Positions 8,341 through 15,780 of a DNA stretch of 64,000 bases are shown here, in pieces. Source of the stretch: Cirrosporium novae-zelandiae (taxonomy: Eukaryota); assembly GCA_026023565.1 (NCBI GenBank), contig JAPETS010000004.1, positions 372,001-436,000 of the forward strand, in the 5' to 3' direction. The notes under the pieces were generated by a model. It had not been told where the DNA came from. It did not search any database and saw only the letters and a list, made by a program, of their open reading frames with translations. A program made the position numbers and the translations under genes. Position 1 is the stretch's first letter, and each line of letters starts with the position of its first letter.

Positions 8341-9999
8341 TCATGCCAGGCAAGTCCGTACATTATGACCAGGACGCCTACACTTTGAGCACCTAGGTGG
8401 CTTGCGAATAGGGTTGGCGGCTGCTGCTGCTGGGGGAGGAGGAGGAGGGGAGAGGGGGGGGGACCCACCTGGAGATTCTAATGAATCTGGGGGATCTGAG
8501 AGCTCTGAGGAATAAGAAGTGGGTTTAAGGTTGTCTTGCTCTGATTTTAGTTGTGGGGTATCCTCCTCTTTTTCTTTTTTCCCTTCTTCATCCTCTCCTT
8601 CCCCTTCTCTTTCTTCTTCTTCCTCTTCTTCTTCCTCCTCTTCTTCTTCTTCTTCCTGTTTTCCCTCACTTTCTTCTTCCCCATCTTCCTCCTCTTTTAT
8701 TTGCTCTTCATATTGCTCTTCCTCTCCCCTTTTTTGTCCGTCTCCACCGTTGCCGTTGCCGCTGCCGTCACTGTCGCTATTGTTGTTACTCGATTTTTTA
8801 GGGCTGCTAATCCTGGAGTAAGAGCTGCTACCAGAAACAGCAGATGTCTGATCGTCTGGGGGGTTGTTATCTGCGTCCCCTTCATCATTCACACTCTCAT
8901 CATCCCCACTTTCACCATCATCCCTACTGTCAGAATCCCAGGTATCGCTACTAGTTTCAGGATCATCGTTGTAGTGGTCGGGTTTGTTTGGTGGCATTTG
9001 AAAGTTTTTCGCAAAAGTACTAAACTTCACGGGTGGATCTGCTAGCATCCATCGCCTTAGAGTTTTCAAGGAATATCTGTCAGTCCTTTCATCCATCGTG
9101 GGATAAAGCTTATCATTCCAATGCTCTTTTGGATGATACCAATGACCCACTTTAAACCCTCGAGCTACTCCTGTTACATCTTCTCCAAGCTTCAACGTGA
9201 GACTCCAGTCAACGAGAATCAGTAGGTCAGTTTTAGACTTTTTAACAAATACGGTCGTGATATTGAATGGGTTGAGATTACCGTGGCTTAATTCGAGAGT
9301 TTTGTGCATGTACCGTAGACTTTTTCTGATCAGTCTATAGTAGCTATGACGATCGATCATGTCATAACCGTCTACTAAATCTTGTATCCTCATATCAAAG
9401 TCTTCAAATCAAACTGTTTTAACATGGCTCCAACGGTTGGTAGTGCACCCATAACATTTAGATACGTAACTAACCTTGGTACGGAGCTCAAGTTCTTTGC
9501 GGGCAACATATTCACCGATCGTCGCTCTATGGAGCTGGGCCATTTGATGTTGAAGATAAAACCCAAGCTGGTTTGCAAGGTGTAGAGCAATTTCATTCCA
9601 GTCATCCCCAAGAAGATCCGTAGGGGTTTCTGAGTTTGAGCTTTGCTTGCCAGAAGGGTAGGCATCTGCATTATCAACTGATTTTGTTAAGACTTTTTTG
9701 AAATTTCCCGGCACTCCAAGCCAATCGAAAGATGGCATTTTAGTTTCCAGATCCTCCATATTGACAGTATCCATCCGATTGGGAAAGGCTGTATCCCAAT
9801 GAAGGTTTGTATAGTTTTTCTTGCTGTACTTCATAACTACTTTGCCTTTGGAAGAAATTTTGAAAAATGTGCCGTGAAACTCGGGCTTTAATGTCTCTAG
9901 GTCTAGATGATAAGCTTGGAAAGCCGCTTCAAATTTATTTGACGACCTATTAGGTTCGTCGTCTTCGTCGGGATTGTGTACCGAACTTGAGGTAGACAT
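8341..9999 (-). pseudogene. Protein-kinase-fold (pseudokinase) ORF with acidic and proline-rich tail and C-terminal CX2CX4HX4C zinc knuckle; one in-frame TGA at 9409-9411
   Basis: ORFs 9409-9999 and 8341-9393 are in the same frame. Kinase-like motifs appear in order: HGTFFK..VVMK, EYVARKEL, YVSKCYG, V*FED, LRYMH, HGNLNPFN, LVDWS, HPKE, TDRYSL. The protein ends CSKCRRPGHNVRTC. Confidence 0.65.
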
Positions 10000-11911: not shown

Positions 11912-13252
11912 TCACCAGCCTAGCACTGCTTTAGCGCCCGTTTCACTGCAAACATATAAGACATTATGGTTGTCCGTGAAGCCATTGAACTTTGTAGCAC
12001 TGCAGCGTGTGTATGCACCCATATCCTCGAAGTAAAGCCAGTCTCCCACATCCAACAGCTCCTTAAATGTAACCCTCTCAGAGATCTGATCAATTCCATC
12101 ACAGGTCGGGCCCCAGATAGAGTAAGTCGTACAATTGTGAGTAGATAGTGGTGAGACTCTAGAGTAGAGGAAACTTCCAGCAGCACTTAGGAGCCTTGGA
12201 ATAGGATGTTGGTGATCAAACATGATAGATGAAAAGTTCCCGTAGACTCCATCATTGAGGTAGAGCATGTATGATGTGGCTCCAGTGGCATGATCATAGA
12301 CATCACGTCGAGAAATCACGTTACAAGCCAGGGTAAATGCGGAAGAGACGTAAAATCGCCCCGGCTCTGCAATCACATGGACATATGGAGGAAAGCATTC
12401 ATCTAGTGCATCACTGAGCACGGCTGCCATAGTTTCAAAGGTGTCGTTGGTAAATCCACCACCAACATCCAACGTTTTGAGATCATATCCTAGTTCAAGG
12501 GCTTGGTCAAAGACAATGCGTGAGTCTTGGACAGCTTTGAGGAATGATTGTGGATCGGAGGCTCCAGAACCAACATGGAAACTCACACCAACAACATTAA
12601 GGTCAAGGACTTTGGCTAGGTTGAGGAGCTCGAAAGTGCTATCGAGTGAGGCACCGAATTTCAAACTCAAGCGGCAGAGGCTAGTAGAGTCATCGGTGAG
12701 AATGCGAAGGAATAGTTCGGCATCTGGGTAGAGTTCCTTAATCTTGTAAAGCTCATCGGCATTGTCAAAGGTCATCTGCTTGACACCCTCTCTGGCAGCA
12801 TAGCGGACATAGGATTTAGTCTTGCATGGTTGTGCATATATGATTCGGGATGGGTCGATACCTAGTCCTAATACTTGCTCGATTTCAGATTTGGATGCAC
12901 AATCGAAACCTAAGCCGAGAGCACAAAGCAACTTTAGGACCTGGGGGTCTGGATTGCATTTCACGGCATAGAATGGTTTGACACGAGGGAGATGGAGTTT
13001 CCAGCGAAGGTGCTGGCGGTAAACTTCCCCTAGATCTGCAACGAAGAAGGCATCTTCTTCGCCTGGCTCGCAGGTATTTGGGTCAACTTTTGAGACCCTG
13101 TCTTGGAAGGCCTCGCCAATTAAGTCCTTAGGTGACTCGGAGGCTTGGGTTTGGTACTCATCGCCATAATGGTAAGTCTTTGATCCGGCTGTACCGTCTA
13201 AATTATAGAGAGGTAAATAGTTGTCCGAGATCGTAAGAGCAGATGGTGCCAT
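11912..13252 (-). CDS. SPE1: Ornithine decarboxylase
   Basis: PFYAVKCN (PLP lysine), FDCASKSEI, GVSFHVGSG, DVGGGF, IAEPGRF, WGPTCDGID and MGAYT. Confidence 0.97.
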   Translation of the reverse strand: MAPSALTISDNYLPLYNLDGTAGSKTYHYGDEYQTQASESPKDLIGEAFQDRVSKVDPNTCEPGEEDAFFVADLGEVYRQHLRWKLHLPRVKPFYAVKCNPDPQVLKLLCALGLGFDCASKSEIEQVLGLGIDPSRIIYAQPCKTKSYVRYAAREGVKQMTFDNADELYKIKELYPDAELFLRILTDDSTSLCRLSLKFGASLDSTFELLNLAKVLDLNVVGVSFHVGSGASDPQSFLKAVQDSRIVFDQALELGYDLKTLDVGGGFTNDTFETMAAVLSDALDECFPPYVHVIAEPGRFYVSSAFTLACNVISRRDVYDHATGATSYMLYLNDGVYGNFSSIMFDHQHPIPRLLSAAGSFLYSRVSPLSTHNCTTYSIWGPTCDGIDQISERVTFKELLDVGDWLYFEDMGAYTRCSATKFNGFTDNHNVLYVCSETGAKAVLGW

Positions 13253-13309
13253 AACCAGGTTTGGTTATGATAAGATAAAATGTGAGTCCTGGTTCTATTT
13301 CGGATACTG

Positions 13310-13543
13310 TTAGGGAGGGCGAAGAGACTCCGACCCTACGATACCAATTTGGCGAGACCCCCTCGACTCTTCCTCCGAGAGAGGAAGAACCTTTTGGCTC
13401 GTCCCAAGCGGCAGCTCGAAATTATCGAGGGTCAAGAGATGTTGGGGAAACAACTTGAAAAGCAGAAGATGAGGCTGACTAGACCTAGACAGCAGGAGGT
13501 GGTAGATTATTGAGTATGTCTCGATGTTGTCGAGGGAATACAA
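13310..13543 (-). promoter_or_regulatory. Non-AUG (UUG) upstream ORF in the ODC leader, ending Pro-Pro-stop (uCC-like)
   Basis: No ATG on the minus strand between 13253 and 13641. In-frame TTG codons at 13543 and 13453 both sit in TTCAAG-TTG context. The ORF ends ...SESLRPP-TAA 57 nt before the ODC ATG. Confidence 0.65.
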
Positions 13544-13641
13544 CTTGAAGGGCTACTTGGTTCGAGGCCGTCAAAGCCGTAGTGATTTGATGATTGCCTT
13601 TGGAGCTCAAAGGCGAATTTGATTATGGATTGACCTTAAGT

Positions 13642-13740
13642 CTGAAATTGTCAGTTAGAAGCAAGATATCGCAATAATAGTTCAAAGTGGCAATTCCAAC
13701 TTTGAACCCCAAAATTTAGGGGGGAGAAAACTTCACATAC
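13642..13740 (-). other. 5'-UTR intron of ODC mRNA
   Basis: CAG|GTATGT donor at 13740, CTAACTGAC branch region and TTTCAG acceptor at 13642. Confidence 0.7.
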
Positions 13741-14328
13741 CTGGAATACCACAAGGTAGGAATGCAGAATGCAGAATAGATGCTGTGAAACAGATCACCC
13801 CGGTTGATGGAGGAGAAGAAATTGTTTTGGAGGATTGTGGGGGGTTTTGTGCGAAGAAGTTCGGTGAGAGAAATTTAAGGGTTCGGTAGAGTAGTAACTC
13901 CGTCAAGTTGGGTTTCAAGGGTTCGGTAGAATACGGATGACGCCCAGCCCTGTCCAGGCGTGCCCAGTCATACCAGTCAACTGTAACCTCAGATTCAAGG
14001 GCCACATATAGGCTCTAGCTCTCCACAAATCGATATGAGTACATTTCGAATTGTGACGTACTTTAGCCCTACTTACTATGGTACTGTACAATCTTCTTGT
14101 GGGTACCTACATGATAATGTTACCGTCAATCTTTAAAAAACCTGGGAGAAATGATTTTAACCTATGATAACATTTCAATTAAGATACATCTTATTCATTG
14201 GCAAGTACCTACCCAGGTAGGTAATTAGTAATCCTTGACTTTGCTCTCAATGAATGGCAACTTCGTATTAAAGTTTGTATAATTTGACTATTCCTTGTCC
14301 ATTGCTACAAGAAGATATCCTCTCAGAT

Positions 14329-15780
14329 TCATATCCTTTTCGCCTTTATGAATGAATGCACATCAATTTGGCGCTTAGAAGGACTTTGCCCCTTCCCCAC
14401 GTAAATTCCGGGTATAGGAATTTCATGGGTTAGCCCCCCTTTCTTGAACCCAGCCTTTTTCATCATTGGAAAAAAAATTTTCTCTTCCTCATTTCGTACT
14501 TTGGTTGCAATAATCACCTTGATGTCAGGTTCCTGTTCTGCTAACCTGGATATAGTGCCAACAAGAGCGGGAAAACTGTCGGTATTGTAAGTACAGTCCG
14601 ATATGATCACAAGATCGAACCTCTTTCCCACAAGACTAGCTGGAAGTTCTTCCTCCCATCGAAGAGTTTCGAAAGTAACGGTGCTTGATTTTGCTGGAGT
14701 GGCATATTTGATGTTGATTTGCGCAAGCTCATTATCTTGATCTGTGATTGCAACGTCACAGTGTGATATAAGTTGCGCAAGAAGAATGCCTACGAGACCA
14801 CATCCCGTCCCGAGCTCGATTATCTTAAGTTTTCGACGATATGAGATAAGTAGGATTTCGTGTAGAATGGGAATGTCGAATTTTTTACTATCCGCGTGAA
14901 CATTTGCTATAGTGTCGTTATATTCGAGCCAGTCATTGAGGTATGCGACTAGGCCTAAGCTTGCATCCCTATAGTCCAAGACATGGTTAGAATCGCGTGG
15001 TAACATGTTCAGACATGACAAGGTGCCTATCTTTAATAGATCCAATATGCCGAAGAGACAAAGCCAGATAACAGGATAACCGATTCGTTTCTCTTAGAGT
15101 TTCTTTCAATTCTGCAAATTTGGTTGTACATCATGATATCTCATTCAAATGCAAATATAAATTTCAAGGGTTACGGCGAAAATCGCTTGAACAAGAAGCC
15201 AATCTCACCAAACATGTCCAGATAAACCAGTCTGTCCCATTGCCTCATTCACGTAGAGCCTAGTGCCATTGTACAATGAGAATACTCTTTGAACCTCTCT
15301 GGTGGCTTCCACGGTAAATGGTTTATCCAATTTTGAGGGTGTTGAGGGCCCCTGAAGTTTCAACTCCCCGCTGCGAGCACCCACGATTAAGGGAAGGGTT
15401 GAAGGGCTAAGAACGGGCTTGGGAAAGGGAATCATTGTCACTTCCATACGAAAGTGAGTCAAAGGTCGGCCAAATTGGAGATTGGTGTGTCCCTGTATCT
15501 CTTTGGAAGCTCGATAACGTGAATCAATTTTCAGAACGCGGTTGTCTTTATCCCAACTAACGTGCCTACCCTGGCATAATGACGTATCATACTGGGAAGT
15601 CTGACTGAGTGTATATTCATCTGTAATAAGGTCGATGTATATGTCCTGGGGGCGGGGGTAAAGTTCCTCTTGGAGATCAGAAGTGATGGATATCTTGGCC
15701 TGGACATGCCATTCTTGATTAAACTCCTTGGGGTCGAAGGAAATCTTTGGTGTAGAAACAAAATTCAAGTAGTAAACCAT
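14329..15780 (-). CDS. Family 16 (METTL21/Efm-like) SAM-dependent protein-lysine methyltransferase
   Basis: GHVW|DAS joined across intron 14969-15208. Motif I IIELGTGCGLVG, AITD, LRW and IISDCTYN (DxxY). Confidence 0.88.

Follow-up and report, generated by a model that had tools for sequence, protein, structure and literature searches.

Two overlapping non-AUG upstream reading frames with proline motifs in the ornithine decarboxylase leader of Cirrosporium novae-zelandiae and its relatives

The leader of the ornithine decarboxylase (ODC) gene in Cirrosporium novae-zelandiae contains two overlapping upstream open reading frames (uORFs) with non-AUG start codons, which we refer to as uORF-A and uORF-B. 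uORF-A starts at an ACG codon and encodes three consecutive prolines (PPP), while uORF-B starts at a UUG codon and ends with two prolines followed by a stop codon (PP-stop). Both starts and both frames are under selection among the leaders of related ODC genes, and the spacing is fixed. uORF-B is already known, and represents the upstream conserved coding region (uCC) of the Pezizomycotina ODC genes described by Ivanov, Loughran, and Atkins in 2008, as summarized in section 6 of the review PMC2811004. uORF-A was overlooked in the original prediction, which was made from the letters of the window alone; the window is the whole stretch of 64,000 nucleotides analysed here (contig JAPETS010000004.1, positions 372,001 to 436,000). 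On balance, we lean towards the interpretation that the leader acts as a feedback switch through which polyamines control the synthesis of ODC, in which each of the two uORFs would contribute a proline stall. The features are listed in Table 1.

Table 1. Features of the ODC gene and its leader, in window coordinates
Feature	Position	Strand	Description
ODC main ORF	11912..13252	-	446 aa; coding sequence without intron; YAVKCN (PLP lysine) and GPTCDG (catalytic cysteine)
uORF-B (known uCC)	13310..13543	-	UUG start; 77 codons; ends with SLRPP-UAA
Hairpin 2	13368..13388	-	within uORF-B, codons VLPLSEEE; 8 pairs
Near-invariant motif	13406..13415	-	GCUGC[C/U]GC[A/U]U; within uORF-B; codons CUG-CCG-CAU in most relatives
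uORF-A	13485..13580	-	31 codons, opened by ACG with A at -3 and G at +4; peptide (M)ALTASNQVALQVVFPRQHRDILNNLPPPAV-stop
uORF-A Pro-Pro-Pro	13494..13502	-	first base 41 nt 3' of the uORF-B start
uORF-B start and context	13541..13547	-	C-A-A-R-[UUG/AUU/AUC/CUG/ACG]
Hairpin 1	13596..13614	-	GCCUUUG/CAAAGGC stem
Predicted 5'-UTR intron	13642..13740	-	99 nt, GT-AG; donor GTATGT, branch CTAAC at 13658-13654, acceptor CAG

The protein encoded by the main ORF, which starts with the ATG at 13252 on the minus strand, matched the Pfam families PF02784 (E-value 6e-83) and PF00278. Its best matches in PDB were ODCs, with scores of 391 to 395 bits, as compared to 290 to 295 bits for AZIN1, and the gene was present in a single copy, with one match in its own genome. 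It was also noted that the intron-free coding sequence (13252 to 11912) has relatives in L071, L072, and L020 with an intron of 48 to 51 nt at about position +275. Two codons upstream of the ODC ATG, a CTG in the same frame is flanked by A at -3 and G at +4 in the window (CTG-GTT-ATG at 13258 to 13250, minus strand), where many relatives read ATG-GTT-ATG, encoding MVM.

The original prediction of a 5'-UTR intron followed by an AUG-free leader of about 390 nt agreed with the sequence. The exon-2 leader downstream of the predicted GT-AG intron (13641 to 13253, minus strand) is 389 nt long and contains no ATG, as compared to the 5.0 predicted from its composition (P of about 0.007). The closest ATGs in the 5' direction are located at 13738, within the intron donor and followed directly by a stop codon (ATG-TGA), and at 13971. 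By eye, intron-like signals near the equivalent site were identified in L002, L039, L050, and L073, among 7 nearby loci. The exon-2 leader of the window had a folding z-score of -3.4, and a search against Rfam recovered no family over the leader, the sole hit being at chance level and located outside it. In L009 and L020, a second intron-like stretch was seen in the 5'-UTR between the uCC stop and the ODC start, and might link the uCC to nonsense-mediated decay.

To study the conservation of the leader, we scanned metagenome contigs and selected the best 80 of 483 stretches that encode a relative, in 78 of which the start ATG was located. Removal of 4 loci without PP-stop, of loci with less than 300 nt of sequence upstream, and of loci that were identical over the last 150 nt resulted in 51 distinct leaders, including that of the window. 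The full architecture, i.e. uORF-A with an ACG-G start plus uORF-B, was present in 46 of these, which form the basis of most alignment counts, and 5 near-duplicates were dropped for the alignments of the hairpins, resulting in 41 leaders. The sequences are related, and the counts do not represent independent events. The ODC proteins of the set were 61% to 99% identical, with a median of 71%, and 2 clusters bear names of Dothideomycetes, namely Alternaria, Bipolaris, Pyrenophora, and Cladosporium (4 of 10 proteins found).

Among the best 80 of the 483 stretches, 74 of the 78 loci had a PP-stop in the 300 nt before the ODC start, as did 65 of the 66 loci whose upstream sequence was 300 nt or longer. 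The corresponding values were 5, 1, and 1 of 49 in intervals further upstream, 1 of 66 on the antisense strand, and 12% in shuffled sequences, and the PP-stop near the ODC start is thus found beyond chance. The single long locus without it (L070, with 600 nt upstream of the ODC start at 1363) has retained the invariant motif described below, and its uCC is apparently frameshifted with a different end, which may reflect decay or an assembly error. Across the 46 leaders, ATG codons were identified in only 2, as compared to about 184 expected; both apparently lie in introns, as the surrounding sequence is intron-like, and one of these stretches is missing from the spliced contig L075. Furthermore, contig L060 was identical to the genomic L071 over 479 nt of leader and lacked the 51-nt intron in the coding sequence of L071, and is hence spliced. 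Since hairpin 1, the ACG, and the uORF-B start are all present in L060, they are contained in the mature mRNA of a relative.

In accordance with the original prediction, uORF-B in the window is a frame of 77 codons that is bounded by an in-frame stop codon four codons 5' of the UUG (TAG at 13555 to 13553) and ends with GIVGSESLRPP-TAA, the stop ending at 13310, 57 nt upstream of the ODC ATG. Two in-frame UUG codons had been suggested as starts on the basis of their identical TTCAAG-TTG context with A at -3, and both copies were found, at 13543 and 13453, but only the first withstood the comparison with relatives. The combination of A at -3 and TTG at 13453 was observed in 1 of the 46 leaders, which was the window itself, and we rejected this codon as a functional second start. 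At 13543, a near-cognate codon was present in 47 of the 51 leaders (TTG in 25, ATT in 13, ATC in 6, CTG in 2, and ACG in 1; other codons in 4). The start codon has switched 7 times on the tree by parsimony, always within the near-cognate set, and its context was nearly invariant, all 46 leaders reading A at -3 and 45 reading C at -4. The glutamine codon that covers this context was CAA in 45 of the 46 leaders and never CAG, whereas CAG is the more common of the two in ODC coding starts (109 vs. 50), as expected for a start context frozen inside a coding frame.

The frame of uORF-B was unbroken from start to stop in all 46 leaders, with lengths of 71 to 86 codons, and was blocked between the ACG and the uORF-B start in 23 of them. 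The codon-level conservation of its C-terminus that the original prediction had proposed to examine was evident in the alignment: the stop codon was TAA in all 46 leaders, the two proline codons varied only synonymously, and downstream from the QLPH block, over the remainder of the uORF, the pN/pS ratio was 0.55 in frame, as compared to 1.10 and 1.02 in the other frames. The position of the stop codon relative to the ODC reading frame was random (14, 15, and 17 leaders), which argues that uORF-B is a free-standing uORF. No Pfam family was recovered for the peptide of either uORF.

These features place uORF-B in the uCC family, in line with the original prediction. It shares with the Pezizomycotina uCC, as outlined in section 6 of PMC2811004, the location in an ODC leader, a non-AUG start (AUU or UUG), conserved C-terminal residues, and two adjacent prolines at the C-terminus. 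The uCC is given as about 100 codons in that section, whereas uORF-B has 71 to 86 codons, or 82 to 98 if counted from the out-of-frame ACG. The section lists ACG among the putative uCC starts, and names no second non-AUG uORF, PPP frame, or hairpins for the Pezizomycotina.

The ACG at 13580 is the most conserved start codon in the leader. It forms part of a near-invariant ACGGC sequence that is located 37 nt upstream of the UUG at 13543 in the alignment, and was identified as ACG in 49 and as ACG-G in 46 of the 51 leaders, the latter invariably having a purine at -3 (41 A and 5 G). uORF-A extends over 28 to 46 codons in these 46 leaders and ends with RDILNNLPPPAV-stop in the window. It runs into the 5' portion of uORF-B, which is read in another frame, the relation of A to B being +1 in all 46 leaders. 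No stop codon was present in frame A between the ACG and PPP in any of them, as compared to 22 and 24 leaders with stops in the other two frames.

Several measures indicated that frame A is the constrained frame in the overlap. Frame A had a pN/pS ratio of 0.47 to 0.57, as compared to 1.16 for frame B and 1.3 to 1.6 for the third frame, such that selection in this segment acts on A and not on B. The parsimony steps in frame A were distributed as 73, 66, and 178 over codon positions 1, 2, and 3, and over nine codons, 53 amino acid steps were required for frame A, 112 for frame B, and 120 for the third frame. PPP was located at +41 from the uORF-B start in all 46 leaders, with no changes at the first and second codon positions, 16, 13, and 17 changes at the third positions, and all four proline codons in use at each site. 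The segment from the uORF-B start to PPP was the sole segment without length changes, while 8, 17, 11, 23, and 37 changes were counted in the others. The distance between the ACG and the uORF-B start was 31, 34, or 37 nt, and all of its 8 length changes on the tree were multiples of 3. By comparison, the uORF-A stop was located 0 to 51 nt after PPP, with 23 length changes and a diverse context of 32 different 7-mers in the 46 leaders.

uORF-A was absent from 5 of the 51 leaders, representing three lineages (L018/L023/L024, L037, and L045). These leaders have retained the PP-stop, and uORF-A is therefore dispensable in some lineages. L018, L021, L023, L024, L037, and L045, in which the PP-stop uORF was kept and uORF-A is lacking, provide natural contrasts for tests of uORF-A; in L018/L023/L024, the uORF-B start has been replaced too, and this clade may use another start. 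A search pattern for the architecture that omitted the 31-nt spacing matched 56 of the 64 long-enough loci, counted without deduplication, and the omission accounted for 2 of the 8 misses (L042 and L049).

Two hairpins in the leader covary. Hairpin 1 ends about 10 to 15 nt upstream of the ACG, a spacing that was measurable in 39 of the 46 leaders, and is present in the minimum free energy fold of the window. In the alignment of 41 leaders, 92.3% of its cells were paired and 7 cells had changed on both sides, counts that are inflated by relatedness. None of 500 shuffles reached as high a value, and partners that were slid along the alignment were paired in 17% to 57%. For hairpin 2, 95.6% of the cells were paired and one U-A pair was replaced by C-G in 10 sequences (41 leaders; inflated likewise), but the RNAalifold consensus at this site was weak, at -3.5 kcal/mol, and shifted in register. 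A long-range GAC/GUC helix around hairpin 2 was weak, with 82.6% paired and 12 broken cells at one pair, and was rejected.

The motif GCTGC[CT]GC[AT]T was present in all 51 leaders. Its codons were CTG-CCG-CAT in 43 of the 46 leaders, with no synonymous variation in any frame, and in S. cerevisiae, CUG-CCG is a codon pair with a conserved inhibitory effect, according to passages of PMC6379720. The frequency of the pattern in its own genome, 25 as compared to 16 for a reversed control, was uninformative. We also considered a third uORF that would end with Ala-Ala-Ala-stop at the motif, and rejected it on the grounds that the frame upstream was open for 0 to 95 codons with no shared start, and that the window lacks the stop. 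The motif is followed by TGG in the window and by TAG or TAA in 49 of the 50 other leaders. This TGG leaves a frame of 72 codons open over the ODC start (13421 to 13203, minus strand), the 5' end of which has no evident start codon.

Both uORFs are very probably translated and functional, and polyamines are likely to be the signal; a relay from uORF-A to uORF-B as the main logic is slightly favored. Translation in C. novae-zelandiae, the ligand, and the relay are what we infer. In AZIN1 and HOL1, high polyamine levels inhibit eIF5A, and stalls at PPW or PS-stop queue ribosomes and raise near-cognate initiation, according to passages of PMC11550727 and PMC9082881. For the fungal uCC, we infer a polyamine/eIF5A mechanism by analogy with these two genes, for which it was shown. 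At low polyamine levels, most scanning 43S complexes would bypass both weak starts, ACG and UUG, by leaky scanning and, with no AUG on the way, reach the start codon of ODC. The small number of ribosomes that had initiated upstream would clear the prolines rapidly with eIF5A. At high levels, eIF5A would be inhibited, and ribosomes would pause at PPP in uORF-A and at PP-stop in uORF-B. The queue behind PPP, which is located 41 nt 3' of the UUG and 72 to 78 nt 3' of the ACG, would park ribosomes over the weak starts and raise their use, which would feed the long PP-stop uORF and block access to the ODC AUG. PPP would thus serve as a near and fast sensor, and the PP-stop uORF as a long block. Based on footprint sizes, a scanning complex that touches an 80S ribosome stalled at +44 would sit near +14, off the UUG, and the scanning footprint would therefore have to be larger, or the queue longer, for the geometry to fit.

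A more far-reaching version of this reading, which we put forward only tentatively, is that the ODC mRNAs of filamentous ascomycetes use a previously undescribed queue relay in two stages, where a stall at the PPP of the ACG uORF, which follows a hairpin and keeps the 41-nt distance, would start translation in the other frame, followed by a stall at its PP-stop. The near-invariant motif and hairpin 2 in uORF-B would then add a further layer of control.

The overlap between the uORFs could also serve a different purpose. In all 46 leaders, uORF-A overlaps the uORF-B start out of frame, and its stop is located 183 to 399 nt upstream of the ODC AUG with no AUG in between. With uORF-A as a decoy, ribosomes that initiate at the ACG might translate past the UUG in the other frame, terminate, and then start again at the AUG of ODC. 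A stall at PPP at high polyamine levels would abolish this reinitiation, such that uORF-A would promote ODC synthesis at low polyamine levels instead of feeding uORF-B. However, long uORFs reinitiate poorly, and with 28 to 46 codons and PPP, uORF-A is long for efficient reinitiation; moreover, a conserved peptide and a fixed spacing to PPP would be superfluous in this role. We consider it unlikely, although a similar model with a tiny uORF of 2 to 3 codons and a small uORF is described for plant AdoMetDC in passages of PMC2811004.

The constraint at the nucleotide level and the covarying hairpins within uORF-B would suit an effect that is exerted mainly on mRNA level, through nonsense-mediated decay or decay set off by stalling. 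The RNA structures and the motif would then be co-factors, and the translational block would be secondary. In N. crassa, the leader region that holds the uCC represses ODC about 30-fold, an effect described in PMC2811004 for the region. Of this, about 3-fold acts at the level of translation and is eased in part when polyamines are depleted, which also speaks for the feedback switch, and the bulk is not ascribed there to translation of the main ORF. Such a mechanism would leave the fixed geometry between the starts and PPP unexplained, and is compatible with the feedback switch rather than exclusive of it; as the main explanation, it seems a little less likely than reinitiation.

It is improbable that the architecture is real and responds to a signal other than polyamines, such as the elongation rate, the stringency of start selection by eIF1 and eIF5, or the supply of amino acids. 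Non-AUG starts respond to many inputs, according to passages of PMC9082881 and PMC5487733, and the CUG-CCG pair in uORF-B is inhibitory in S. cerevisiae (PMC6379720, in part), but the leader belongs to the gene whose product catalyses the first step in making polyamines, and a spermidine response of homologous uCCs is stated in PMC2811004.

An antizyme-like +1 frameshift from an ACG start into frame B would be in agreement with the constant +1 relation and would yield a single peptide of 82 to 98 codons ending with PP-stop, close to the uCC length of 100 codons stated in PMC2811004, but is very improbable because the uORF-A stop moves and its context is diverse, in place of the conserved shift site found at the ORF1 stop of antizyme, the third positions of PPP are free and leave no fixed slippery site, and uORF-B has a conserved start of its own.

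The feedback switch that we favor resembles several known systems. The vertebrate AZIN1 uCC likewise combines a weak start (AUU) with a proline stall (PPW) upstream of an ODC homolog, as published by Ivanov in 2018 and described in passages of PMC11550727 and PMC9082881. In AZIN1, however, start and stall are in one frame, whereas the leader examined here has two non-AUG frames, two stalls (PPP and PP-stop, with no PPW or PPS motif), and an ODC of the active type as the main ORF. We propose, by analogy, that the leader may work like the AZIN1 uCC without being its ortholog; uCCs of different groups are considered in PMC2811004 to have arisen independently. The S. cerevisiae HOL1 uORF, which belongs to a fungal polyamine gene as well, also stalls ribosomes at its stop codon by a motif with proline (PMC11550727, in part), but differs in that it ends with PS-stop and precedes a transporter, as compared to PP-UAA and a biosynthetic enzyme here; the two are likened by motif and not by sequence similarity. 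The plant AdoMetDC leader contains two conserved, overlapping uORFs, termed tiny and small, the first of which extends over the start of the second, again in a polyamine gene, but as presented in PMC2811004, these have AUG starts and the first is non-inhibitory with only 2 to 3 codons, whereas both starts are near-cognate here and uORF-A, which is ACG-initiated and has 28 to 46 codons, encodes a conserved PPP peptide.

No description of an ACG/PPP uORF in fungal ODC leaders was found in the titles and abstract openings searched, and the primary uCC papers may contain it. The passages of PMC2811004, PMC5487733, PMC5009743, PMC11550727, PMC9082881, and PMC12719033 did not mention it. The authors of the uCC work may well have noticed the ACG, since PMC2811004 names ACG starts and about 100 codons in its section on the uCC, which is near the 82 to 98 codons counted from the ACG here. 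We consider the chances about even that uORF-A is already in print. What the present analysis adds is the anatomy of the leader, with two conserved non-AUG starts and two proline stalls in different frames. The spacing has remained unchanged across ODCs that are only 61% to 99% identical, which provides exact positions to mutate. For the queuing model, it becomes testable whether a stall can set the choice of start codon in another frame, and at what distance. The anatomy could also explain older results on the N. crassa spe-1 leader, which were obtained without knowledge of any uORF.

Two other reading frames were noted in the surroundings. The upstream neighbor on the same strand (14329 to 15093, minus strand) encodes a lysine methyltransferase of the Methyltransf_16 family (PF10294), and ends about 1.08 kb upstream of the ODC ATG. 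A frame of 355 codons at 8341 to 9408 (minus strand) has a kinase-like start, an acidic middle part of low complexity and a C-terminal CxxCxxxGHxxxxC motif that resembles a zinc knuckle, and is possibly related to a transposon.
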